A stretch of 64,000 bases of DNA from Anaerolineales bacterium (GTDB lineage: Bacteria; Chloroflexota; Anaerolineae; Anaerolineales; E44-bin32). The stretch spans positions 1,285-65,284 of the forward strand of contig JARRJK010000027.1 of NCBI GenBank assembly GCA_037379555.1, given 5' to 3'. The position numbers and the translations under genes are program-made. Positions 20,447 through 54,611 of the stretch are shown piece after piece. The number at the start of each line of letters is the position of its first letter. Positions within the stretch are counted from its first letter, which is position 1. The notes under the pieces were generated by a model that worked only from the letters and a program-made list of their open reading frames with translations, was not told the DNA's origin and did no database searches.

Positions 20447-21595
20447 ATGCGCGTGGCAGTCTTCACCAACGCCTACAAGCCGGCGGTCAGCGGTGTTGTC
20501 ACCTCGATCGATTTGTTCCGCCAGGGGCTGTGGGCCGCCGGCCACGAGGCGCACATCTTCGCCCCTGAGTACGAAGCGTACGATGACGAGGAAGCCTACG
20601 TCTTCCGGCTGCCGGCGCTCGACCTGACCGAGCAGTTGAACGTCTCGATCGTGCTCCCGTTCAAGAACCTGATCGATCTGACGATGCACGGTATCCGGCC
20701 AGACGTGATCCACTCCCAGCACCCGGTCTGGATGGGGGATCTGGCCGCTTCCTTCGCCCGGGACTTGGAACGACCGCTGGTCTTCACTTTCCACACCCAG
20801 TACGAGCAGTATGCCCAATTCTACAGCCCGGTCGCCGCCAAACTTGCCGAGCGCCTGACGGAGGATCGCCTGCGGCGCTACCTGGAGCAGTGCGCGCACA
20901 TCATCGCGCCCACCGAGTCGGTCCGCAGGATGCTCGAATCGAGATTCGATTTACACGATATGGTGACCGTCATCCCCACGCCGGTGGATTTGAAACACTT
21001 CCAGTCGGCGCCAGCGGGCGAAATCCGTCAGAAGTATGGCTTGCACGGGAAGGAGCTCCTGCTTTTCGTCGGGAGGATCGCCAAAGAGAAGAATCTCGGA
21101 TTGCTGTTCAAAGCGTTCGCCAGGGTTCGCGCCCAGCGGCCGGCAGCCCATTTGATGCTGGTCGGCAAGGGACCGTTCGAAGCGCAGGCGCAAGAGCTGG
21201 TGCGCAAGCTGGGGGTGGAAGATGCCGTCACCTTCGCCGGGGGCGTGCCGCACGCGCAAATTCCAGCCTACTACCGCGATGCAGATCTGTTCGTCTTCAG
21301 CTCGACGAGCGAAACACAGGGTCTGGTGCTGGTCGAGTCGATGGCTGCTGGCACGCCGGTTGTGGCGGTCGAAGCACCCGGCTCCAGCGATATCCTGAGC
21401 GGCGGCGGCCGCCTGACCGCCCCGGATTCTGCCGGGCTGGCAGAGGGGATGCTCGCCGTGCTCTCCGCCGCGGGAGAAATGGAGCGGCTGGCGCGCGAGG
21501 CAATCGGTATTGCTGAACGCTACTCGATAGCCGGCGCGACGGAGCGCATGCTTGCGGTGTACGACCGCGTGCTTACGAGCGCCGGATTTGCTTAG
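20447..21595 (+). CDS. glycosyltransferase family 4 (GT-B, Glycos_transf_1)
   Basis: 382 aa. N-terminal MRVAVFTNAYKPAVSGV..., C-terminal ...FVGRIAKEKN...ADLFVFSSTSETQGLVLVESMAAGTPVVA (E-x7-E region). Confidence 0.9.
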   Translation: MRVAVFTNAYKPAVSGVVTSIDLFRQGLWAAGHEAHIFAPEYEAYDDEEAYVFRLPALDLTEQLNVSIVLPFKNLIDLTMHGIRPDVIHSQHPVWMGDLAASFARDLERPLVFTFHTQYEQYAQFYSPVAAKLAERLTEDRLRRYLEQCAHIIAPTESVRRMLESRFDLHDMVTVIPTPVDLKHFQSAPAGEIRQKYGLHGKELLLFVGRIAKEKNLGLLFKAFARVRAQRPAAHLMLVGKGPFEAQAQELVRKLGVEDAVTFAGGVPHAQIPAYYRDADLFVFSSTSETQGLVLVESMAAGTPVVAVEAPGSSDILSGGGRLTAPDSAGLAEGMLAVLSAAGEMERLAREAIGIAERYSIAGATERMLAVYDRVLTSAGFA

Positions 21596-21767: not shown

Positions 21768-23075
21768 TCACTTCGCCAGGTCGATCGCCGCCGGCAGGTA
21801 GTAGTTCTTGTTCTCCTCGTACTGCACATCCAGGTCGGCGTTGCCTGTGATCTTGACGCTGAGGCCGATCACCTGGGCGTTCACCCCCAGCGTATCGCCG
21901 GTGCCCTCCAGAGTGACCTCCGATGATGGCGCGTAAATGGTCCCGGTGTAATAGGTGTTTGAGCTGCCGGTGACGTGGACCGGGTTGCTGTTCGTCGGCG
22001 CCATATAGATCAGCATCCCCTTCCAGTCGTTACTCGACGGGTCTTCCAGCACGCCCTCAGTCTCCTCGGCCATGAGCTGCACGAGCGTGTTGCCGCCCAG
22101 GTCGAAGGGGCCATCCGTCAGGTAGAAGAAAACGCCGGTTCCGGTCACCGTGCCGCCGGTGCCCTTGATGCCCTTGTTGCCGTAGATGCAGTACATGCCC
22201 GGATCGAAGGTGACGTTGGCGTTGGCGCCGATCGAGATCTCCTGATATTGGCCGGGTGTGACGGTGACCGTCTGGCTGGCGTTGATCTTGAGCTTGCCGT
22301 AGTCGTTCAACGCCGAGCAGTCGGGAGTGGGCATCGGCCGGATGTAGCTGCGGGTTGCGTACTCATTCGGCGCCGGGCTGACCATGCCGCTGCCGCCTAT
22401 GTCGAATGTCCCGACGACGTCGATCCCATAAGAGGGGTCTACCGTGATCGCGCCGCCGCCGCCCTGCACGCCGGACTGACAGCTGGCGCTGGCGGCATCC
22501 GAGTTGGAGAAGACCCCGCCGCCGTTGACGAGCGTGTCGCCCGTGCCGGAGAACCAGACGCCCTTGCAGTCATGCTCGGTGAGGGCGTAGATCGCATATC
22601 CAGGGGTGTAGCTCTGCGGCGGCCAGATGCGCGCCACGGCTTCGGCCTGATTGGAGAGTTTGCCGGCGAAGACAAGGTGGGCGAAGCTGGTGTCGAGGGC
22701 AGATTTGATGATGACATGGATGTAGTTCGGATCTCCGGCGTAATCGCCGCCCCGCGGCGGGCTGGTGACCTGGATCGATAAATCCGAGCCAACGCCCAGG
22801 ATGCAGTCCAGGCCAGGCGGATCGCATGCTTGAGCAGTTGTTGGGTATTCATTGGTGGCGGCGGTATTGAGCGCGGCGATGCCGAAAGGAGTGCCGCCTT
22901 TGATCTTGGCGTAGGCCGCGGCGAGCGCGGCTGCATCAGCCGCGTTCTGCGAGCGACGGTGCTCGGTGAGCAGCATGCCGCCGTCGAGCGCGAGCGCAGA
23001 GAAGGCCAGCATGCCGACCATCAGGATCGCCAGAATGATATAGGATTGACCGGTTTCAGCATGTCTTCCGATCAT
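21768..23075 (-). CDS. TadG-like (Tad/Flp pilus-assembly TadE/G-like N-terminal domain) protein
   Basis: 435 aa. N-terminus GQSYIILAILMVGMLAFSALALDGGMLLTEHRRSQNAADAAALAAA is the TadG-type anchor. A long Gly/Thr-rich beta region follows, ending ...YTGTIYAPSSEVTLEGTG. Confidence 0.8.
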   Translation of the reverse strand: MIGRHAETGQSYIILAILMVGMLAFSALALDGGMLLTEHRRSQNAADAAALAAAYAKIKGGTPFGIAALNTAATNEYPTTAQACDPPGLDCILGVGSDLSIQVTSPPRGGDYAGDPNYIHVIIKSALDTSFAHLVFAGKLSNQAEAVARIWPPQSYTPGYAIYALTEHDCKGVWFSGTGDTLVNGGGVFSNSDAASASCQSGVQGGGGAITVDPSYGIDVVGTFDIGGSGMVSPAPNEYATRSYIRPMPTPDCSALNDYGKLKINASQTVTVTPGQYQEISIGANANVTFDPGMYCIYGNKGIKGTGGTVTGTGVFFYLTDGPFDLGGNTLVQLMAEETEGVLEDPSSNDWKGMLIYMAPTNSNPVHVTGSSNTYYTGTIYAPSSEVTLEGTGDTLGVNAQVIGLSVKITGNADLDVQYEENKNYYLPAAIDLAK

Positions 23076-23108: not shown

Positions 23109-23525
23109 TCAGCATGGTGGTTGCAGAATCGTGTCGATCGCTTCCGCCTGCAGGTGAAGGGTGTTGCCGGCGATGAAGGGGGCCGCCAGATCGAAATCGT
23201 ATTCCACGCGCACCTTGACCGTGTTGCCGGCACAGGCTGCGCCGCTGTATTCAACATCGATCTGTTCATCAGCGAACGCGGAGAGATCGATCGGTTCGTT
23301 CGAGGTGGCCCGAACCCGGGCGCGTATATTGCTGACATCGCCGGGCGCGATCGAAGCGTAGGCCGCGCCTTCCTGGGCTGCATCGCGGACGGCGATGAAG
23401 CTGTAGTACGCTCGTCCGAGATCCATGCCGCCGGCCAGCAGCACGAGGATGAATGTCACGCCGACGGCGAATTCAGTCAGGCTCTGGCCTCGCTCCCGGT
23501 TCTTCCTGCGGAATAATGATTTCAT
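23109..23525 (-). CDS. TadE-like pseudopilin
   Basis: 138 aa. RERGQSLTEFAVGVTFILVLLAGGMDLGRAYYSFIAVRDAAQEGAAYAS (TadE signature G/xxxEF plus hydrophobic helix). Confidence 0.8.
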   Translation of the reverse strand: MKSLFRRKNRERGQSLTEFAVGVTFILVLLAGGMDLGRAYYSFIAVRDAAQEGAAYASIAPGDVSNIRARVRATSNEPIDLSAFADEQIDVEYSGAACAGNTVKVRVEYDFDLAAPFIAGNTLHLQAEAIDTILQPPC

Positions 23526-23594: not shown

Positions 23595-24086
23595 TTATTT
23601 AACATAGATGTCCCGTAGCACCGTACGCGCTGTCGTCGACCGCAGCGGCAGCGGCGGTAAATTTACCAGCGGCACAATCGGCTCGAACGTGAACGTTACG
23701 GTGACGATGATCCTGTCGCCGAGCGCGAGTTGGACGGGCGGGCAGGTGGCCGTATGGAAACCTGTGGCCGGGTTGTCGTACTCGATCACGATATCGCTGT
23801 CCTCGAGGGGTGTCAGCGGGGCGACGCGCCGGGCTTCATCACGGATACCGGCGCAGTCACGGAAGTGCTCCGCGCCGCTGGCGGTCGTCCCGACCGAGGC
23901 CCCGTAGCGCGCGGCCTCGCGGCTGGCGGAGGCGACGCCGGAGTAGGTGATCATCAGACGGCCGAATTCCACGATGCCCATGATCAGCATCAAGAATACC
24001 GGTAGGATGAGCGCGAATTCCACAAGGCCCTGCCCCTTGTGCGCTTTTGGATTGCGGTTGCCGATTCTGCGCTTCAAGCCTGTCAT
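23595..24086 (-). CDS. TadE-like pseudopilin
   Basis: 163 aa. HKGQGLVEFALILPVFLMLIMGIVEFGRLMITYSGVASASREAARYG. Confidence 0.8.
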   Translation of the reverse strand: MTGLKRRIGNRNPKAHKGQGLVEFALILPVFLMLIMGIVEFGRLMITYSGVASASREAARYGASVGTTASGAEHFRDCAGIRDEARRVAPLTPLEDSDIVIEYDNPATGFHTATCPPVQLALGDRIIVTVTFTFEPIVPLVNLPPLPLRSTTARTVLRDIYVK

Positions 24087-24180
24087 ACTCGCTTCACTCC
24101 GTGCTCACCGATCTCCGTCTGAACCATCGCCTCCACCCTCCGCTCGGCTGTTTTCACGTACCTGGCCCCTCCGCCGTGTG

Positions 24181-24230
24181 AAAACAAAAACGACCGTGTT
24201 GCTGCAGGACAGCTGCAAGCTACACGGTCG
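24181..24230 (-). terminator. intrinsic terminator acting as the expression platform of the upstream riboswitch
   Basis: Minus strand reads CGACCGTGTAGCTTGCAG-CTGTC-CTGCAGCAACACGGTCG followed by TTTTTGTTTT. It lies 95 nt upstream of the tadE-like ATG. Confidence 0.85.
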
Positions 24231-24249
24231 CCGGTTAAACGCTTTCCCA

Positions 24250-24346
24250 GACGGTTCGGTAGCAGGCTGTCCTGGCTGGTCTTCCCAGCTGTAGACCCTG
24301 TTGCTTTGCGTCGCCACCTTTCGGTGGGTTTGCCTTTTCGTCGTAG
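24250..24346 (-). promoter_or_regulatory. c-di-GMP-I (GEMM-I) riboswitch aptamer
   Basis: Minus-strand RNA: CUACGACGAAAAGGCAAACCCACCGAAAGGUGGCGACGCAAAGCAACAGGGUCUACAGCUGGGAAGACCAGCCAGGACAGCCUGCUACCGAACCGUC. Hallmark blocks are present: GGCAAACC, a hairpin with GAAA tetraloop, GACGCAAAGC, and a second hairpin closing with ...GCCUGCUACC. For comparison, the V. cholerae Vc2 aptamer as I recall it reads ...GGGCAAACCAUUCGAAAGAGUGGGACGCAAAGCC...GGUAGCGGGGUUACC. Confidence 0.8.
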
Positions 24347-24688
24347 AGGGCAGTCAATTGTTCAGGTGCACCGCCGCCTTACAAAATCCTAACAAATCAA
24401 GCAGTTTATGCGTAATCCCCTATGAGTCCTATGTAACGGATTTTCATTTGCTTCGTTAACAGGAACTCATTCAAGCCGGATCAGTGCGGGTCACGATCTG
24501 GATTATCATCTGTCGATCTCCGGCCACCAGGAGTATGCTAACAGAGGACCGGGTGGTGGACATCAACTGTTCGATGGAGATTTGCCTGCACTTAAGACGG
24601 ATGTACTGCGGGATCAGGTGAAGAAGTATCAGGATGATTTCAGTGGCGAAGGCTCGCTTCCAGCAGGGCTGGAAGAGTCACACGAGTT

Positions 24689-33554: not shown

Positions 33555-33618
33555 AATCACTATAGAGCATCCATTGGATGCACCCCACGAGGGAATGGGT
33601 GCTCGAGAGGGAAAAAAG

Positions 33619-35166
33619 ATGAACAGCACACGATGGGTATATGTCTTCCTGGGGCTGGCGGCCTTCGCGGTGCTCGGCACTGTGACAGTCATCGCGGCCT
33701 TTATTGGCCTCGATCTGGTGCGCGGCAGCGCCTGGAACGAAGGAGTGGCCTCGCCGACGCCTGCCGTGCTTCCAACGCAGTCCGGTCAGGCGAGCATAAG
33801 CGGCCTGGTCTGGCACGACCTGTGCGCTTCGGGCATCCCCGGCCAGCCTGCGCAGGCCGAAGCGCCTGCGGGATGCATCGCGGGTGGCGAATGGGGCTTT
33901 GCGGCCAACGGTATGCTCGAAGCGGGTGAACCGGGCATAACAGGCGTCTTCGTCCGTCTGGGGAGCGGTGCCTGTCCGGCGAGCGGACTGGCCGAGCAGG
34001 CCTCTGATGGGGCCGGTCGTTTCGCCTTCGAGCAGCTTGATCCAGGCACATACTGTGTCTCGATCGATCCGGGCGACGCCCGCAACGCACCACTCCTGCA
34101 GCCGGGCAATTGGACATTTCCTGAGCGCAGTGCGCCGGCGATGGCCACCATAAACGTGGAACAGGCGGAGCACATTTCAGATGTCAATTTCGGCTGGGAT
34201 TTCCAGTTCGAGCCGTTGCCTCCGACGCCGACCCCCACACCGACGGTCACGCCGACGGCGACCATGCCGCCCACGCCAACTCGCACGCCTACGCCTACTG
34301 CACCGCCGATCCCCTGTGACTGGGTTGGCTTCGTCAAAGATATATCCGTGCCAGACGGTACGAACCTGCATCCAGACGAGACCGCCACCAAGACCTGGCG
34401 GCTGAAGAACATCGGCACCTGCACCTGGACCCGCGATTACGACCTGGTTTTCATCACGGGTGCCCGGATGTCGAACACCAAGGCGGTGCCGCTGAAGGCA
34501 AACGTCAAGCCCGGGGAGACGATCGATATCTCGATTGAGCTCAGGGCGCCGGTTCTCACGGGCAAGTACACTGACTACTGGGCGCTGCGCAACGCCTCGG
34601 GACTGATCTTCGGGATGGGATCAGATGCCGATGACCCATTCTGGGTGACGATCAATGTGGTCAAGCCGAGAAAGGTCGTCTTCAACTTCTATGAGCATGT
34701 TTGTGATGCGGACTGGGTGAGCACCAGCGGTGAGCTTTCCTGCCCAACGCAGGATTACTCCATCGATGGACTCGTTCAAGGCGTGGCCCTTCCGGTCCTG
34801 GAAGGGGGGCGCCAGGAGAATGAGCCCGGGATCTGGGTCATTCCGGAAGGAGTCGGCGGCGGCCGGATCTCCGGCACCTTCCCGGCCCTTAGCGTGAAAT
34901 CGGGCGATCATTTTCGAACGGTAGTCTCCTGCGCGAATGACGCACCTGGCTGCGATCTGCAATTCAAGCTGGAGTACCAGATCGGAGACGGCGAGGTCAA
35001 GACGCTGGGCCGTTGGGATGAGACCTACGACGGCAAATACACCAAGGTTGACATCGACCTCAGTCCCCTGGCGGGCAAAGATGTGAAATTCATCCTGACC
35101 GTCCGGGCGAAGGATGCCTTCAACCAGGACTTTGCCCTCTGGCTGATGCCGGCGATCTATCGCTAG
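33619..35166 (+). CDS. membrane-anchored/secreted protein with SdrD-B/Cna-B-like domain, Pro/Thr linker and NBR1-like (Nbr1_FW) Ig domain
   Basis: ORF from 33574. The ATG at 33619 is preferred (MNSTRWVYVFLGLAAFAVLGTV anchor). GEPGITGVFVRLGS...GRFAFEQLDPGTYCVSIDP, then PLPPTPTPTPTVTPTATMPPTPTRTPTPTAPP, then CDWVGFVKDISVPDGT...TKTWRLKNIGTCTW...YWALRNASGLIFG. Confidence 0.8.
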   Translation: MNSTRWVYVFLGLAAFAVLGTVTVIAAFIGLDLVRGSAWNEGVASPTPAVLPTQSGQASISGLVWHDLCASGIPGQPAQAEAPAGCIAGGEWGFAANGMLEAGEPGITGVFVRLGSGACPASGLAEQASDGAGRFAFEQLDPGTYCVSIDPGDARNAPLLQPGNWTFPERSAPAMATINVEQAEHISDVNFGWDFQFEPLPPTPTPTPTVTPTATMPPTPTRTPTPTAPPIPCDWVGFVKDISVPDGTNLHPDETATKTWRLKNIGTCTWTRDYDLVFITGARMSNTKAVPLKANVKPGETIDISIELRAPVLTGKYTDYWALRNASGLIFGMGSDADDPFWVTINVVKPRKVVFNFYEHVCDADWVSTSGELSCPTQDYSIDGLVQGVALPVLEGGRQENEPGIWVIPEGVGGGRISGTFPALSVKSGDHFRTVVSCANDAPGCDLQFKLEYQIGDGEVKTLGRWDETYDGKYTKVDIDLSPLAGKDVKFILTVRAKDAFNQDFALWLMPAIYR

Positions 35167-35749: not shown

Positions 35750-36853
35750 ATGCGAAGGTACCGGGTGGTGCTTGCTTTGATGCTGCTTGGTTTGAGCGCA
35801 TGCGTCAATTCCGAGCGGAACCAGCTCCACGTTACCCCGACGCGAATTACAGCCGGCTACGGCCATACCTGCATCCTGAGGACATCCGGGGGGATCCTGT
35901 GCTGGGGACATAATGGTTTCGGACAGCTGGGAAGCGATGACCTCGGGGACTGGAAGAGTGCGCTCATGATGAATATCCCGGGAGAACTTTCGGCGGTCAC
36001 GGCCGGCGCATACCACACCTGCGCCTTGACTCAGGCGGGTGATGTGTACTGCTGGGGTTGGAATGCATTCGGCCAGCTCGGTGATGGCACGACGGTCGAC
36101 CGGACGTCACCGGTGCGCGTGAAATCCCTGCCCGCTGATGTGGTTCAGGTGGACGCCGGTTCGACCCATACCTGTGCCCTGGATGCACAGGGCGGAGCGT
36201 ACTGCTGGGGCCAGAACAGCTGCGGGCAGCTGGGCGATGGCACCCAGACCGACCAGTCTGAAGCAGTCCAGGTGCAAGACCTTCCAGCCGGAGTAACCAC
36301 GATCGCCTCCGGTGGGGTCTTCACATGCTCACTGACTGCGGCAGGCGACATGTACTGTTGGGGGGATGGGTCAGCGGACCGTTTCGCAGCAGGTAGTGAG
36401 CCTTGCGTCCTCAGGCCGATAAAAGTTAATGCAAGGCCCGGGTTGATCGCCATTGCGGCCGGAGAGTATCACCTGTGCGCACTTCAGGATGATGGTTCGG
36501 CTGCCTGTTGGGGATCGATCACTACGGAACGGGCGACGACCCCCGAGGAACCACTGGCTGCTTCAGGCCTGCCAGATCGGATTGCTCAGCTGGAGGCTGG
36601 AGCAGGTTTTCAATGCGGGTTGACCCAGTCCGGGCTCGTCTACTGTTGGGGTGATAACTACTTTGGACAACTGGGAGATGGAACGGATCGGCCGAGCTTA
36701 TACCCATTGGAGGCGGTAGCGCTGCAAGGGCATGCCCTGGAGATCGCGCTAGGCTCCGGTCATGTCTGCGCCATGATCGATGACGGAAAGGTGTACTGCT
36801 GGGGTGATGGTTCGGCTGGCCAGCTGGGCGATGGATCTCAGCGCTGGCAGTAA
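35750..36853 (+). CDS. RCC1-repeat beta-propeller lipoprotein
   Basis: 367 aa. Lipobox MRRYRVVLALMLLGLSAC. Seven repeats of the type GYGHTCILRTSGGILCWGHNGFGQLG. Confidence 0.9.
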   Translation: MRRYRVVLALMLLGLSACVNSERNQLHVTPTRITAGYGHTCILRTSGGILCWGHNGFGQLGSDDLGDWKSALMMNIPGELSAVTAGAYHTCALTQAGDVYCWGWNAFGQLGDGTTVDRTSPVRVKSLPADVVQVDAGSTHTCALDAQGGAYCWGQNSCGQLGDGTQTDQSEAVQVQDLPAGVTTIASGGVFTCSLTAAGDMYCWGDGSADRFAAGSEPCVLRPIKVNARPGLIAIAAGEYHLCALQDDGSAACWGSITTERATTPEEPLAASGLPDRIAQLEAGAGFQCGLTQSGLVYCWGDNYFGQLGDGTDRPSLYPLEAVALQGHALEIALGSGHVCAMIDDGKVYCWGDGSAGQLGDGSQRWQ

Positions 36854-47777: not shown

Positions 47778-50700
47778 TTACGTCCCTTCGGGGATGATGT
47801 CGATCAGGACCGCGCGCACGACGGTACGTCTCAGGTAAAGACCCTGGGCCGGATTGAAGCTGTGGCAGGTGATGAGTGTGAGCCAATCTCGCTCCTCATG
47901 CTGCATCACGCTCAAATCATCCGGGAGGACGGTTCGCCGCTGGCGAACCTCGTAGACATAGATCAGGCCATCGCTGTGCAGCAGGATCCGATCGCCCCAA
48001 TTAATCTCAGAAAGCTCGCTGAACGGCCCCGGCAAGCCGCTTGGAAGCACGACGTGGGCGGTGAGCATCGTGTTGCCGGCATGAGTCGGATAGGCTGTGC
48101 CATACAGGTATCCGATGCTGTTCCACAACCAGGTAAGGTCCCAGCCAGAGTCATCTGTCCCGACACCGACGATCGAAGCGCGCATGCCGAGCGACGGGAT
48201 TTCAAGCTCCAGATCCCCCAGTGAGGTGTAGGCTTTCGAGACGGGTTGTGCTGGCAGCGGCGTGCGCTGACCCGGCGCGAATCCGGTTTCCGGCAGCTCC
48301 GGCGCGCCAACCGAGACGCTGGCGAGAACCTGGTACAGGTCGACCGGCGTGGTTGGATCGTAGCGCCGTTCCGCTGCGAGCGCGTTGAAGGGTGAGAGCG
48401 CATAGGCCGCAGCCACGTTGTCGTCAGGCAGGCTGGTCCATTCGAGTGAAGCCTGGTTGACGAGACGCTGCCCGGGTCGGATGTCACCGAGGACTACATC
48501 GAACGTGATCTGGCTCGTCTCCGTCAGGTCAAAGCTATCCCATGTGACGGTGATCACACCACCTGATTCACTGCACGATCCGGAGCTGCAGCTCAAGGTA
48601 CCGGGAACGTAGGCGAGCTCCGGCGGCAGCATGTCCGTCAGCACGAGGTCGAACGCAATCGAATCGCTCGCTGCGGCCTGGGCGACGGTCAGTTTGAAGG
48701 TGATGGATGAGCCGGGCGGCGTGGTTCGCGGGGAGGCGTCCTTCGCCAAAGTGAGCGTCGGTTCGACGATCTCGATTTCGTTCGCCGAGGCGCTCAGCTC
48801 CCCCGACCCCCAGGTCCAGTGCGCAGCGTTGTTCAGACGGACGCCGCGCAGGTTGCCCGCGTTGTCCAATACGACGACTGTGTAGATGATGGTCAGCGTC
48901 TCATCGCTTCCGCCGAAGGGGTTATTGTTGGTGACATCCCCCAGGTTGAAGACGATCCGCCGTCCCTGGTCCTCTTCAGCAGGGCTTGCGGCAGGTTCCG
49001 GCAGGATCTGTGGGTTCCCCCCGGCGGGATTTCCAGCATCTGGAGCGCAGGCGGCAGGGAACCCACCGGAGAGCGTGGTTGTCAGGTTGCCCGAACTGGG
49101 CGTGATCGAGACGCAATCCACGAACGATAGGCCGCGGTCCAGCACGTCCTCGATCTGCACGCCGCTGATGGACCCGGAGGGGATGTTGAGCACGATCTCG
49201 TAGGTCAGGATCTCGCCGATGGCCACCGGGGGCGTGCCCGTGATCTGTGCATCGCCCGGGTCGGTGTGGTTCTGGTTGGTAGCCAACAGGTTCTTGTTGA
49301 TGTCCAGGTTCCCGAGCGTGACCACATTATCGCGATCGGTGCTTGTGTTGTCGCCCGGGGTCTGATCGGCGCCATTGGTGCCGTCATCGGTGATCACAGC
49401 CGTGTTTGCAACCAGGCTCGTCCCGATGGGGAATGGATCGTCGACCAGCAATGCCAGCTGCACGCTTCCCCCGGAGCCAGCTGCCAGCGTGCCAACGATG
49501 TAGTTGCATGTACTGCCGGGATCCCCTGGTCCGAGCGGGCCGGTGCCATCGGGATCATCGCAGTTCCAGCCCGGACTGCTCGAGCCGGCCTGGAAAGTCG
49601 TGTCGGCTGGCACATCGTCGCTGATGACTACGCCGGACGCGTCCTGGTCGCCGTTATTGGCGTAGCTGAGCGTGAAGATCAACAGCGTTCCAGGCGAGAC
49701 CGTATCGACGCCGTCATCCTTTACGACCGATAGATCGGGCGCGGCTATAAGCGGGGTACTGTGGCTCGCGCTGTTGTTGCCCTGCAGCAAAACCGGCTCG
49801 TTGGAGGCCGAGACCGAAGCGGTGTTGGATGTGATATCCACCAGGATTGGCAGGGAGCTGTCTACGGCGACGGAGAAACTGACGCTGGCAGAGCTGCCTC
49901 CGGCCAGCGGGCCGAGGGCATAGGTGCAAACGCTGCCAGCGGGAGCGCCGAGCGCGCATGACCAGCCGGCCGGGCCGGCAAAGGCAGTGTGATCCGGCAC
50001 CGTATCCGTAATGAGAACGTCCGCCGCATCGACATTGCCGATGTTCTGAATGGCGAGCGTGTACGAAACCGTTTGTCCGGGCGCTGCTGAGAGAACGCCA
50101 TCGTCCTTGCTCAGGGTGACATCGACCTCCGAGGCTGTGATGGTCTCGCTCGCCGCTGCAGCGTAGTCGTTCAATCCGCCGCCCACCCCATCGGCGCCGG
50201 TTCGCTCATTGGCATCGGTTCCACTAAGCGAGGTCCAGGAGGCATTTGCCGTATTGGTCAGAGTATCTCCGACTGCGACTGCTGGTGGGATGCCCAGCGC
50301 GGCCCGGTAAGAGAGGTTGACCGTTTCGCCGAGCGCTATCTGGCCAGCGCTGAACGTCAGCGCTGGAGCGGCGCTGTCATCGAGCGACCATCCCGGTGGA
50401 AGAGGGGTTACCGGTCCGAGATAACTCAAGCCGGAGGGGACAATATCGGTGAGCACGATATCCTCTGCAGCGGCGTTCGAGCTGCCGCCGGGATTGCTGA
50501 CCGTGAGTGTGTATGTAACCGTCCCACCCAGGCTGGGCGTGTCGTCGTCGGCGGCTTTGAGGAGCGTGAGAGTCGGCTCAACAACCTCAACGTCGGCGTT
50601 GGCTGCAAGCGTATCGCTGTTGTACGTCAGCTCAGCAGTATTTGTTAGCTGATCTCCATCCTGGTTGGCGGTTACGTTCTCCATCCGGGCGACGATTTCC

Positions 50701-53700
50701 AGCGTGATCACATCGCCCGTGTCGCTGACGCCGTCCGGCGCGTTGGTCACATCGCCGAAATCAAATATCACCTGATCGTTGATACTGTCGGCGTCAGGCC
50801 CATCGCTGATCGTGATGCTGGGGATGATCGAGCTGCTGATCTGGCCGCCGATGGAGACGATGTCGGCGCTGACGACGCCGAGGACGCCAGCTGGGACAGT
50901 CGGCAGATTGTCGGTCAGTCGCAGCGGAGCAGCCGTTCCCTCTGGGAGCGTGGCAGTAATCTGGAACGTCACTTCCTCGCCGATCACCAGGTCGACGATG
51001 CTCAGGTCATGCCGTGATGAGGTCGTGCTGCTGACGGATGTGGAGCTGATGGTTTTTGAGAGAATTGGGTCGGCCAGTGACAGGTCGGCCAGGGCCGAAT
51101 CACCGAAATCGTTCACGCCACCGGAGCCATCCCGCTCACCGTTCGCTGATCCAGCCCCGCCGGGTGTGACCGAGCCGGTCCCGTTGGGCGAAGTGCCGTT
51201 GCCCGGCAGGCTGCTGTAGGTCAGGCTTATGGTGTTGGGGATATCAGCACCGATCGGAGCATCGTCCACAACGCGCGCAGTGAGGGTGATGCTCGCCGTC
51301 GCACCCGGGTCGAGACAGGTGAGACTGGCCGTGACCAACTGGCCCGCGGCGCCGCCGTTGAAAGCGATCGGCGTGCCGCCGAGGCAGCTCCCGCTGTTCG
51401 GCGTGCCGCTGATTGAAACGAATTCAAGGTAGCTGTCAAGCGTGTCGCTCAGGACGATGTCAAACGCTGTGGCGGCGCGGGCGCCGCTCGAGCTGTTGCT
51501 GAAGCCAATTGTGTATTCGACTGTGTCGCCGGCATCAGAGGGTGCCAGGCTGACGGTCTTGGCAAGGTTGGTGATGAGCGCCTCGGCGACGCGAACGGTG
51601 ACAACGCTGGAGTAGCTCCCGAGGACATCGGGCGTGCCAAGCCGGGTGCGGAAGCGGTTGTTGAGAGCCGTGATCGTCGCCGTCCCGCCGGTGATGTTGT
51701 TGTAGGCTTGATTGCCAGCGATGTTCTCGATGATGGCATTGAATTCGACGACGACGAATTCCTGGTCCAGATCACGGTCGCTGTTGACCAAGGTATCGAA
51801 CCAGAAGTACACATTTGATCCGCTGGCGTAGTTGTCGGCGCTACGATTGCTGGGGCTGGACGAGACGGCGTTATCAGGCAGCACGAAAGACGGGACGATG
51901 CTGGCGAGGTTGGCTTCACTGCCCGTTGCGAATAACGCTGGATCGGACAGGGTCGAAGAGGTGATGCCCGCGTCGTTGGAAACGAGCACCGCCATCGCAG
52001 TGCCATCGTCGAGAAAGAGCAGCCCTGGATACAGGTCGTCTTCAATCCGGAAGTTCACCGCCGTGCCCTCAGCCAGCTGGAAGGCCAGCCGGTAGCGCAC
52101 AATCTCCCCGATCACGACTCGCTCCGACCCGCTTACGAAGCCTGAACTTGGCTCGGAGGTGGTGGCGATGGTCTTGGTCGGGCCGCTGGTGATCGTCACG
52201 ATCCCATCGCCGCTGGCTGCGTAGTCGTCCACGCCTCCCGCGCCCGAGCGTTCAATGGCAGTGGTGTTGTATGGCGAGCGGGGTGTGGTCTCGTCGCCTG
52301 GCAGGCTGGTCCAGGTCAGATCAGCGCTGTTGGTCAGCACCTCGCCCGGGCTGACGGAGGCGTCGAGCGTGACCTCAAAGGTGAACACGGTCGTGCTCCC
52401 CAGGGGAAAGCCCGTGGGCTGATTCCAGCTCGCCGTGAGCGTATTTCCACTGAATGAGCACGTATCCGGCGTGAGGCTGCCGCCGGTGCAGTCGAGCGTG
52501 CTGGTGGTGTACGTCATCCCGGCTGGCAGTGCATCCGAGAGATTCAGGTCGAACGCATCAGCATGACTCACCGCAGCATCGATCACCGTTTCGGCGTCGT
52601 GTTGGACGGTCATCGTGAAGGTGATCGTATCGCCGGCATCGCCCTGATTCGGGGCAGGCACCTTGCTCACCATCAGTTTGGGCTCGATCACGGTCAGGTT
52701 CGGAGCCCCGACCGCTGTCAGGCTGCCACTGTTCCAGGACAGGACTGCGCTGTTGTTCAGGAGCGTGCCATCCTGATTCCCGGCGCTGTTGAGAACGACG
52801 ACCCGGTAGCTGAATGTGATCTGCTCGGCAAGTGCGTTATCCCGGTCGGTGTTGATCAGGTCGCCGAGTTCGAAACGAACGCTTGAACCTGGGCTGGCTA
52901 CAGGTGGGCTGATAAACGCGCCGCAGCCCTCGGAAAAATCGCCAGCCCCGATGGAGGTCGAGATCGCGCTCGAGGCGGTGATGGAGAGGCAGTCGAGAAA
53001 CGCCAAACCGGCATCAAAATTGTCGAGCACGACCGCACCCGGCATCTCGCCTTCCGGGACATCGATCGTGATCGAGTAGGTGGCGATCTCGCCGATGACA
53101 GCCTGAGCGCGAGCGTTGTTGGGATTCTCGATCTCGCTGCTGACGAGCGACTTTGCCAGCACGCCGGTAACTGACGTCTCGGCGGTATCCGTCTGAGGCG
53201 CGGCGAGATGGTTCTGACCGCCTTCGCTGCCGGCGTAGCTGACCAGCGATTCGGTGTTGATGATCGTTCCCGGCGTGACATCGTCCCGCAACTGCAGATC
53301 GAAGGTGATCAGGATGATGTTGTTACCCGAATTTGGATCGTGTGCTTGGCAGACGCCCGAGCCGACCGGGTCGACCAGTTCGATGCCGCTGCCGAAGAGG
53401 TCATCCGCGGTGTTGTCTGTCCCATCCGGGCCGCCGCCGAGGCCCGTGAAGCCGATCGCGGGATCGGAGGAATCGCCATAGTAAACCTGCAGGTTGAGGC
53501 CGCTGGCGTCGCCCGGGATCTGAAATTCGGCGGGCAGGTCATCACGGATGACGATGTCGAAGGCGCCGTTCAGGCTCGAACCAGTGTTCTCGATCACGAT
53601 GGCGAAGGTGACGACATCGCCGGCGTCGACGAAGCTGACATTGCTATCGATCGGGCTTGCCGCCAGGTTGGTCGAGTTAATCACGCCTCCCCAGCGCGGT

Positions 53701-54611
53701 GAATTGGTGCGGTCGAGAAATGTCACCGGTCCGATCGTAACCGGGTCGAAGACAGCGTTGGGGTTGTTGGACCAGATGGCAGCCTTCTTCGAAACCAGGA
53801 CCGGCTCTGTCAGCACGATCTGGGTGATCGCGTCCGAGGCAACTGTGCCGGCGTTGGTGCTGCCCTCGAAGCCGTGGACCTGGTTGGTCAGGTAGAGCCG
53901 GTCGGCGAAGGGCTCGCTGGAGACCACGACGGTGAAGAGCAGGTCGACCGTCGTCACCTGATGGCGGGGGTCGTTAAAGTCGCCGTAATAGAAGTTGAGC
54001 GAGTTGTTTGCAGGATCGGATGTCAGCGCCGGCACGAGGCAGCCGGCGGGTGTCCCGCCGGGATCGCAGGTGTAGGCATAGAACGAATCGGCTGGCCCGA
54101 ATTTTGCGATGCCGGGTGCTGGTGCACCCGCGCTGACCGTCGTATCAAAGGACCAGGCCGGTCCCGGGTTTCCATCGCCATCAGGATCGGCGACGTTGAA
54201 AATCGGGAGCGGGATGTAATCGGTGAATTCGAGATTCTCCTCGTCGCTGGTGGGCAGGCTGAACTGTATGCGGTACGTGAGGCTGTCGCCTGGTTTGACC
54301 TCGACCGGGGAGGAGAGCGTGGTGCTGCCGTTCAGGGCGTAGATCGATTTCGACAGCGTGCCGGTGCCGATCTCCGCGCCCGCCGCACTGCCATCGGTCT
54401 CATCGAAACCGGTGGGCGAGAAGCTGCTGGTGTCGAGCACTTCCCCGGTTACGCTGGCAGTGTTACCGAGCACATCGCCCTGGTCGACGCTCGTGTCGCC
54501 GGAGGGATAGTCGTCGATAAAGTCATCGAGGATCGTGGTCTGGAAACGGATGATGGCGTAGGTCGGGCCGTCGTTGTACCCACCCGGAAGCCCCGTGTCG
54601 CATTCTGGCAT
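47778..54611 (-). CDS. giant DUF11-repeat surface protein (C-terminal 2,277 aa) ending in LPETG plus a fused sortase domain
   Basis: There are many repeats of the type PGDSLTYRIQF..., AGDTITFTMTV...LSDALPAGMTY, GGTVTYTLTVSNPGG...VLTDIVPSGLSY, and recurring ...W(T/N)SL(P/S)G...ER(T/S/D)G..G(V/L)(N/D)D(Y/F) segments. The C-terminus reads ...ELPETGFAPGQRTPLPAQP...LEIPSLGMRASIVGVG...THAGNTMLTAHV...WLTLITCHSF...RRTVVRAVL (sortase His/Cys/Arg). Confidence 0.85.
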   Translation of the reverse strand: MPECDTGLPGGYNDGPTYAIIRFQTTILDDFIDDYPSGDTSVDQGDVLGNTASVTGEVLDTSSFSPTGFDETDGSAAGAEIGTGTLSKSIYALNGSTTLSSPVEVKPGDSLTYRIQFSLPTSDEENLEFTDYIPLPIFNVADPDGDGNPGPAWSFDTTVSAGAPAPGIAKFGPADSFYAYTCDPGGTPAGCLVPALTSDPANNSLNFYYGDFNDPRHQVTTVDLLFTVVVSSEPFADRLYLTNQVHGFEGSTNAGTVASDAITQIVLTEPVLVSKKAAIWSNNPNAVFDPVTIGPVTFLDRTNSPRWGGVINSTNLAASPIDSNVSFVDAGDVVTFAIVIENTGSSLNGAFDIVIRDDLPAEFQIPGDASGLNLQVYYGDSSDPAIGFTGLGGGPDGTDNTADDLFGSGIELVDPVGSGVCQAHDPNSGNNIILITFDLQLRDDVTPGTIINTESLVSYAGSEGGQNHLAAPQTDTAETSVTGVLAKSLVSSEIENPNNARAQAVIGEIATYSITIDVPEGEMPGAVVLDNFDAGLAFLDCLSITASSAISTSIGAGDFSEGCGAFISPPVASPGSSVRFELGDLINTDRDNALAEQITFSYRVVVLNSAGNQDGTLLNNSAVLSWNSGSLTAVGAPNLTVIEPKLMVSKVPAPNQGDAGDTITFTMTVQHDAETVIDAAVSHADAFDLNLSDALPAGMTYTTSTLDCTGGSLTPDTCSFSGNTLTASWNQPTGFPLGSTTVFTFEVTLDASVSPGEVLTNSADLTWTSLPGDETTPRSPYNTTAIERSGAGGVDDYAASGDGIVTITSGPTKTIATTSEPSSGFVSGSERVVIGEIVRYRLAFQLAEGTAVNFRIEDDLYPGLLFLDDGTAMAVLVSNDAGITSSTLSDPALFATGSEANLASIVPSFVLPDNAVSSSPSNRSADNYASGSNVYFWFDTLVNSDRDLDQEFVVVEFNAIIENIAGNQAYNNITGGTATITALNNRFRTRLGTPDVLGSYSSVVTVRVAEALITNLAKTVSLAPSDAGDTVEYTIGFSNSSSGARAATAFDIVLSDTLDSYLEFVSISGTPNSGSCLGGTPIAFNGGAAGQLVTASLTCLDPGATASITLTARVVDDAPIGADIPNTISLTYSSLPGNGTSPNGTGSVTPGGAGSANGERDGSGGVNDFGDSALADLSLADPILSKTISSTSVSSTTSSRHDLSIVDLVIGEEVTFQITATLPEGTAAPLRLTDNLPTVPAGVLGVVSADIVSIGGQISSSIIPSITISDGPDADSINDQVIFDFGDVTNAPDGVSDTGDVITLEIVARMENVTANQDGDQLTNTAELTYNSDTLAANADVEVVEPTLTLLKAADDDTPSLGGTVTYTLTVSNPGGSSNAAAEDIVLTDIVPSGLSYLGPVTPLPPGWSLDDSAAPALTFSAGQIALGETVNLSYRAALGIPPAVAVGDTLTNTANASWTSLSGTDANERTGADGVGGGLNDYAAAASETITASEVDVTLSKDDGVLSAAPGQTVSYTLAIQNIGNVDAADVLITDTVPDHTAFAGPAGWSCALGAPAGSVCTYALGPLAGGSSASVSFSVAVDSSLPILVDITSNTASVSASNEPVLLQGNNSASHSTPLIAAPDLSVVKDDGVDTVSPGTLLIFTLSYANNGDQDASGVVISDDVPADTTFQAGSSSPGWNCDDPDGTGPLGPGDPGSTCNYIVGTLAAGSGGSVQLALLVDDPFPIGTSLVANTAVITDDGTNGADQTPGDNTSTDRDNVVTLGNLDINKNLLATNQNHTDPGDAQITGTPPVAIGEILTYEIVLNIPSGSISGVQIEDVLDRGLSFVDCVSITPSSGNLTTTLSGGFPAACAPDAGNPAGGNPQILPEPAASPAEEDQGRRIVFNLGDVTNNNPFGGSDETLTIIYTVVVLDNAGNLRGVRLNNAAHWTWGSGELSASANEIEIVEPTLTLAKDASPRTTPPGSSITFKLTVAQAAASDSIAFDLVLTDMLPPELAYVPGTLSCSSGSCSESGGVITVTWDSFDLTETSQITFDVVLGDIRPGQRLVNQASLEWTSLPDDNVAAAYALSPFNALAAERRYDPTTPVDLYQVLASVSVGAPELPETGFAPGQRTPLPAQPVSKAYTSLGDLELEIPSLGMRASIVGVGTDDSGWDLTWLWNSIGYLYGTAYPTHAGNTMLTAHVVLPSGLPGPFSELSEINWGDRILLHSDGLIYVYEVRQRRTVLPDDLSVMQHEERDWLTLITCHSFNPAQGLYLRRTVVRAVLIDIIPEGT

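Follow-up and report, generated by a model that had tools for sequence, protein, structure and literature searches.

The locus described here raises the question of how a small set of pilus-type genes is controlled in a member of the Anaerolineales, mostly uncultured filamentous Chloroflexota that are common in sludge and sediments and whose surface biology has been little studied. An earlier note on this DNA had read the leader of these genes as a riboswitch with a terminator, acting through cyclic di-GMP (c-di-GMP). We have followed up that reading in the window, by which we mean the whole stretch of DNA that was analysed (64 kb; G+C content 61%), and in related loci from genomes and metagenomes.

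The genes downstream of the leader are three, all on the minus strand:

23595..24086, minus strand: TadE-like minor pilin gene, 163 aa (PF07811, 60.6 bits against a cut-off of 22.9)
23109..23525, minus strand: second TadE-like gene, 138 aa (PF07811, 33.3 bits)
21768..23075, minus strand: TadG-like gene, 435 aa (N-terminal Tad domain PF13400, 40.2 bits, and DUF7305 PF23981, 30.8 bits)

These domain matches bear out the three-gene tadE/tadG-like module of the earlier note. Since the gene upstream of the leader is divergent, and the TadG-like gene is followed by a convergent GT4 glycosyltransferase gene (20447..21595, plus strand), we take the three to form a unit. The N-terminus of the first TadE (...HKGQGLVEF) fits a prepilin-type G/xxxxE site by eye, an exact look-up of its sequence gave no record, its homologs in Anaerolineales and Chloroflexota MAGs are named TadE/TadG pilus assembly proteins, and we infer pilin-like roles for the gene products. 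Pfam scans of the 39 largest window ORFs found no TadA/CpaF ATPase, TadB/C, Flp pilin or prepilin peptidase, and no GGDEF or EAL protein. With no Tad assembly genes in the window the module is a stand-alone unit here; the Tad machinery may be encoded elsewhere in the genome.

The leader elements discussed below are, in the order of their transcription:

24361..24386, minus strand: conserved upstream blocks, TTTTGTAAGG at 24386..24377 and GCACCTGAA at 24369..24361, from leader alignment A2
24246..24348, minus strand: P1 closing helix, 24347..24339 (UCUA-C-GACG) with 24253..24246 (CGUC-UGGG)
24255..24344, minus strand: c-di-GMP-I (GEMM-I) aptamer, a match to RF01051 over the full length of the model
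24205..24274, minus strand: predicted antiterminator, the aptamer 3′ tail 24274..24257 (CAGGACAGC-C-UGCUACCG) with the terminator 5′ arm and apex 24226..24205
24181..24232, minus strand: intrinsic terminator, an interrupted hairpin at 24232..24189 with the U-tract UUUUUGUUUU at 24190..24181
24150..24185, minus strand: conserved second hairpin, GUUUUCAC at 24185..24178 with GUGAAAAC at 24157..24150

Related loci were collected in two ways. A profile of the TadE protein led to 80 genome loci; in the eight closest (L001-L008, 66–69% identity, all from Anaerolineales or Anaerolineaceae MAGs) the TadE start is preceded at 230–290 nt by an aptamer, after which come a hairpin and a U-tract. Among the next 19 loci (L009-L027) the Rfam model found GEMM-I only in L011 (72.7 bits) and L018 (69.4 bits), more distant TadE loci with the leader-plus-module arrangement; the other 17 are without GEMM-I, so that riboswitch and module go together in one clade only. 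Metagenome contigs were scanned with 19 invariant aptamer bases, which gave 59 loci, about 16 of them with the TadE-TadE-TadG module downstream; many pattern matches were left out, being either chance matches in phage-like coding sequence or GEMM-I elements of unrelated low-GC organisms. The window, genome and metagenome loci together provide 22 distinct leaders of five sequence types, all from one fairly narrow clade, and the aptamer, P1, terminator and antiterminator are retained in the orthologous leaders from Anaerolineales genomes and metagenomes. The flanking genes of the relatives are partly shared (the convergent GT4 gene, an FtsX permease gene and a patatin gene) and otherwise differ. 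A T2SSE-type ATPase gene is nearby in a single relative (L139 5163..6122, plus strand; PF00437, TadA/CpaF-like; ∼2 kb downstream of the TadG-like gene), and none is found within the 64 kb of the window.

Three metagenome loci (L098, L101 and L113) have an intact, window-like aptamer and terminator, and of the module they retain just a TadE fragment of 25 residues, with a syntenic patatin gene further downstream. The Tad module seems to have been lost or replaced here in nature.

When the whole window was scanned with Rfam 15, RF01051 (c-di-GMP-I) alone attained its gathering score. The search with this model, suggested by the earlier note, passed the gathering score of 35 by a wide margin, matching 24344..24255 (minus strand) with 73.8 bits and E = 1.3e-12 across model positions 1-87 of 87, far beyond chance; under clan competition it is the top match within its own Rfam clan. 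The control family suggested alongside it, RF01786 (c-di-GMP-II), had no match in 24040..24480 at E up to 10, and this permissive scan returned nothing besides RF01051. The GEMM-I blocks that had been read by eye on the minus strand, namely AAAGGCAAACC, CACC-GAAA-GGUG and GCGACGCAAAGC, all lie where they had been placed, and the second-hairpin blocks CAGGGUC...GACAGCCUG are likewise present on that strand, together with the apex GCUGG-GAAGA-CCAGC that caps the second helix. The first hairpin has the stem CCACC/GGUGG and a GAAA cap, conserved junction nucleotides (GGCAAAC, GACGCAAAG and ACAGC) join both helices, and standard pairing is found in 20 of the 21 consensus pairs that can be placed on the window sequence.

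The P1 pairing proposed earlier (GACG...GGCA with UGCU...CGUC) needed partial revision: its GACG:CGUC half is correct. GGCA and UGCU have separate partners in the Rfam consensus, where the GC within GGCA joins the GC within GACGC, and where UGCU is matched by AGCA at the foot of the second helix. The P1 duplex folds at −7.8 kcal/mol. It was found in all 16 leaders looked at, with a sequence that differs by type (e.g. GCCC:GGGC and CUUGG:CCAA in other leader types); such retention with differing sequences suggests that the aptamer still works and is no relic.

In the type 1 architecture of c-di-GMP-I RNAs a GNRA tetraloop docks into a receptor in the other helix, and the usual form of the GAAA tetraloop receptor is CUAAG/UAUG. 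The window has the GAAA tetraloop and, in the receptor region, CUACAG/CAGGAC; this region is canonical-looking in type E leaders (CUAAAG/CUAUGAC). The alignment to the model places the equivalent of G20 at G24334, the unpaired G that precedes the paired GC of GGCAAAC, that of C92 at C24259, the first C of the 3′ ACCGAA, and that of A47 at A24307, a position which we take, from the Vc2 structure, to be a ligand contact. With Vc2 of Vibrio cholerae, the type example of RF01051, the window RNA thus has in common the helices, the GAAA tetraloop, the GACGCAAAG junction, the equivalents of G20, A47 and C92, and P1, with a score twice the gathering score and a full-length match to the model. It differs in its host (Anaerolineales, Chloroflexota), in its receptor, CUACAG/CAGGAC against the common CUAAG/UAUG, and in that its expression platform is a terminator. 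By every feature that can be tested in sequence, the aptamer is a genuine member of class I of the c-di-GMP riboswitches.

Downstream of the aptamer, the GC-rich hairpin and U-tract that the earlier note had claimed are both in place. The hairpin folds at −24.6 kcal/mol, and its core stem pairs CGACCGUGU (24230..24222) with ACACGGUCG (24199..24191). Over the 22 leaders this core stem is 90.9% paired, against 27–56% with the partner slid; three of its pairs have changed on both sides in a compensatory manner, and its covariation score was reached by no shuffle. A simple terminator scan was rejected as a test, having missed the minus-strand hairpin and reported only two weak plus-strand sites inside an aptamer hairpin; the miss probably stems from the interrupted stem, which falls outside the stem and loop limits of the scanner. 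The tadE ATG lies downstream of the terminator as had been claimed, at 24086, 94 nt past the U-tract.

What remains is the device that could couple aptamer to terminator, and the search by folding that had been proposed for an antiterminator did find one; it excludes both the aptamer and the terminator, and it is conserved. In the window there is a 9-nt perfect complement between CAGGACAGC (24274..24266) and GCUGUCCUG (24213..24205), reaching up to the terminator apex. This part covers the apex only, and conservation of the extension does not reach all leader types. The more general pairing was seen on folding 14 representative leaders of all five types from the aptamer 3′ half to the terminator loop, a segment that leaves out both competing strands: in 14 of 14 the aptamer tail (..CCUGCUACCG) is joined to the terminator 5′ arm (CG-U-GUAGC..), with a small inner helix made by the P1 3′ strand. 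Across the 22 leaders, pairing in the eight-pair core of the antiterminator stands at 97.7%, falling to 15–52% when slid. Its covariation is modest: only one lineage shows a double change, and of 500 shuffles 8 score at least as high as the real alignment. In L006 and L084 the pair concerned has turned from A-U into G-C, and in L002 into G-U, while three more vary on one side in a way compatible with G-U. The changed column of the terminator 5′ arm still pairs in L006 with the terminator 3′ arm; a strand that serves two partners in turn should behave in this way.

Folding energies were compared at two points of transcription. In a transcript that stops at 24201, with the terminator 3′ arm still to come, the antiterminator fold has the lowest energy, −50.4 kcal/mol, compared with −41.0 kcal/mol when aptamer and P1 are enforced. 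For the full-length transcript ending at 24181, the antiterminator fold has −58.7 kcal/mol, and enforcing the aptamer (with P1) gives aptamer plus terminator at −58.9 kcal/mol; the two states being so nearly equal, the balance between them would be tipped by the free energy that ligand binding contributes.

The arrangement resembles that of Cd1 from Clostridioides difficile, a proven c-di-GMP-I OFF switch, in which the aptamer can stand beside the terminator, the two together competing with an antiterminator made from an aptamer-stabilising 3′ strand and a switching strand (PMC9262584). As in Cd1, aptamer and terminator can coexist here, and the antiterminator is computed to be favoured at the ligand-free decision point. 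The genes differ, being of the Tad minor pilin type here and a flagellar operon in Cd1; the platform sequence is unrelated, and an extra conserved hairpin follows the terminator here. From this Cd1-like architecture an OFF switch is predicted. In the absence of ligand, the aptamer 3′ tail (24274..24257), including the base of the second helix and the C92 equivalent, would capture the terminator 5′ arm and apex (24226..24205) once these are transcribed; the terminator 3′ arm would then be without a partner, and polymerase would read through into tadE. With c-di-GMP bound, the tail would be held in the aptamer, the terminator would form and transcription would stop at about 24181. We consider it likely that the leader of the three-gene tadE-tadE-tadG-like operon is such a class-I c-di-GMP riboswitch, acting by transcription attenuation as an OFF switch; c-di-GMP is accordingly predicted by the model to promote termination and to repress the Tad module. 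The earlier reading of a riboswitch with terminator ahead of a Tad module is itself supported by the RF01051 match, the gene domains, the compensatory changes in the terminator and the conserved antiterminator.

The OFF direction for pilus-type genes runs contrary to the common view (not a rule) that c-di-GMP promotes adhesion, and biological expectation would rather suggest an ON switch, in which c-di-GMP blocks the terminator and induces the Tad-like genes. A class-II riboswitch of C. difficile reportedly induces type IV pili. Control of these pili by a c-di-GMP riboswitch is documented in a paper cited by PMC6916266, and the homologous cGAMP riboswitch of pilM is an ON switch (PMC9262584). 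The pilM design, however, requires that aptamer and terminator be mutually exclusive (PMC9262584), whereas here the two have no nucleotides in common and both form in the full-length minimum-energy fold. The sole conserved alternative pairing uses the aptamer 3′ tail and the terminator 5′ arm, which implies OFF logic, and because aptamer and terminator would have to exclude each other for the opposite sign, we regard an ON switch as unlikely. The GEMM-Ib cGAMP riboswitches of Geobacter (Gs1761, pilM) have the same fold and belong to the same Rfam clan, and some of them regulate pilus genes; GEMM-Ib aptamers are close to GEMM-I in sequence and were first annotated as c-di-GMP riboswitches (PMC9262584), so one may ask whether the aptamer senses 3′,3′-cGAMP, or both dinucleotides, rather than c-di-GMP alone. 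In Vc2, G20 reads the Hoogsteen edge of one guanine of c-di-GMP (G-alpha) and C92 makes a Watson–Crick pair with the other (G-beta); cGAMP-sensing GEMM-Ib RNAs have A in place of G20, and wild-type Vc2, with its G20, binds cGAMP at about 10 µM against picomolar for c-di-GMP (PMC6140456). The window has G, not A, at the specificity position G24334, and so have all 22 orthologous leaders; C is found at the C92 position in the leaders, and c-di-GMP-I stays the best match in Rfam clan competition. With both equivalents kept, c-di-GMP rather than cGAMP is the ligand expected from the sequence, and a cGAMP-sensing aptamer seems to us very improbable.

A further question is posed by the second hairpin, which lies outside the OFF-switch model. 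Its cap is an invariant mini-hairpin, GGC-GGAGG(G)-GCC (24175..24164), with a Shine–Dalgarno-like loop; the GGCGGAGGG-capped hairpin is predicted in every distinct close Tad-type leader, and the block is invariant in alignments A2 and A3. The U-tract of the terminator, joined in some types by its 3′ arm, pairs in this hairpin with a downstream A-rich strand, and that partner strand varies with the leader type, an indication that the helix is real. No Rfam family matched it in 24040..24480 at E up to 10. As a recurrent genome motif, GGCGGAGGG was rejected, its two matches in the window being no excess over the 1.2 expected.

One could therefore suppose that the aptamer binds c-di-GMP and that this second hairpin sets or masks the output, through translation, RNA stability or a protein partner. 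The invariant capped hairpin overlapping the U-tract in every close leader, with its SD-like loop, suits such a reading, and Bc1 of Bacillus thuringiensis, a c-di-GMP-I riboswitch whose long expression platform can respond in a non-simple way, is a precedent for dual or masked control (PMC11218506). Like Bc1, the window has a class-I aptamer, a terminator and a second conserved hairpin close by; unlike the dual terminator of Bc1, its second hairpin has no U-tract behind it, so that it is not a second terminator, and one of its strands is the U-tract of the first. The hairpin can form only after read-through and so cannot change the termination decision, and it is missing from L011, L018 and the L082-type leaders, which retain aptamer and terminator. 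We think it improbable that the output is set in this manner. The hairpin might nevertheless fix the transcript in its read-through fold, bring in ribosomes or serve as a binding site for some factor, and the OFF switch could be extended into a two-stage RNA, with the c-di-GMP OFF switch followed by the clade-specific GGCGGAGGG-capped hairpin as a second control point that brings a second input to a repressed orphan module. In this extension the hairpin would form in read-through transcripts only, capturing the U-tract and 3′ arm of the terminator, and would for instance load ribosomes, bind a protein or stabilise the RNA, c-di-GMP and the second input jointly setting the level of the orphan Tad minor-pilin module. 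We offer this tentatively, as an idea on the whole rather doubtful.

The region between the terminator and tadE also holds a short ORF (24083..24157, minus strand) with a GUG start at 24157, 24 codons and a UGA that overlaps the tadE AUG (AUGA). It was rejected as a conserved coding feature: a GUG or AUG start is present in most types, none is found in L098 and L138, and the peptides are unconserved. On the other side of the aptamer, the blocks TTTTGTAAGG and GCACCTGAA are common to most leaders. A sigma-70 scan gave no promoter at 24361..24386, inspection by eye showed no sigma-54 consensus in the blocks, and no covariation with downstream sequence was seen by eye; they are possibly a promoter region or operator elements. 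Pairing of the GCACCU block with AGGUG of the first hairpin, or with CCAGGUAC after the terminator, was likewise rejected for want of covariation by eye; in L008 the hairpin has changed and the GCACCU block has not. A promoter element is more likely than a pairing partner.

The class, the fold and the attenuation logic are already well known, and the riboswitch is an ordinary addition to the c-di-GMP-I class, knowledge of which it leaves unchanged. In the literature searched, apart from one review in which the terms occur separately, we found no paper that links a c-di-GMP riboswitch to TadE or Tad pili and none that describes a c-di-GMP riboswitch in Chloroflexi. The interest is mainly for the surface biology of Anaerolineales, where a stand-alone TadE-TadE-TadG module can now be assigned a putative direct second-messenger input. 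Should the OFF direction hold true, high c-di-GMP would shut down pilin-like genes, which would suggest that they serve a motile or exploratory state rather than attachment.

Leaders of this kind are also found before other genes. In five loci (L082, L087, L109, L125 and L134) a closely related aptamer and a similar terminator (CGACCGUUUGGC...GACGGUCGUUUU) precede genes for giant secreted proteins, that of L082 exceeding 1,900 aa. Such loci hint at a small surface regulon beyond the Tad module and suggest that riboswitch control of surface proteins is wider in related organisms.

The window itself encodes a giant protein of surface type that carries a sortase-like domain of its own: a 2,277-aa ORF (47778..54611, minus strand) with six DUF11 repeats, matches to DUF7507, DUF7619 and DUF7927, and a C-terminal sortase domain. 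An RCC1-repeat protein (35750..36853, plus strand) adjoins one with SdrD B-like and N_BRCA1_IG Ig-like domains (33574..35166, plus strand), and these may be further surface or secreted proteins.
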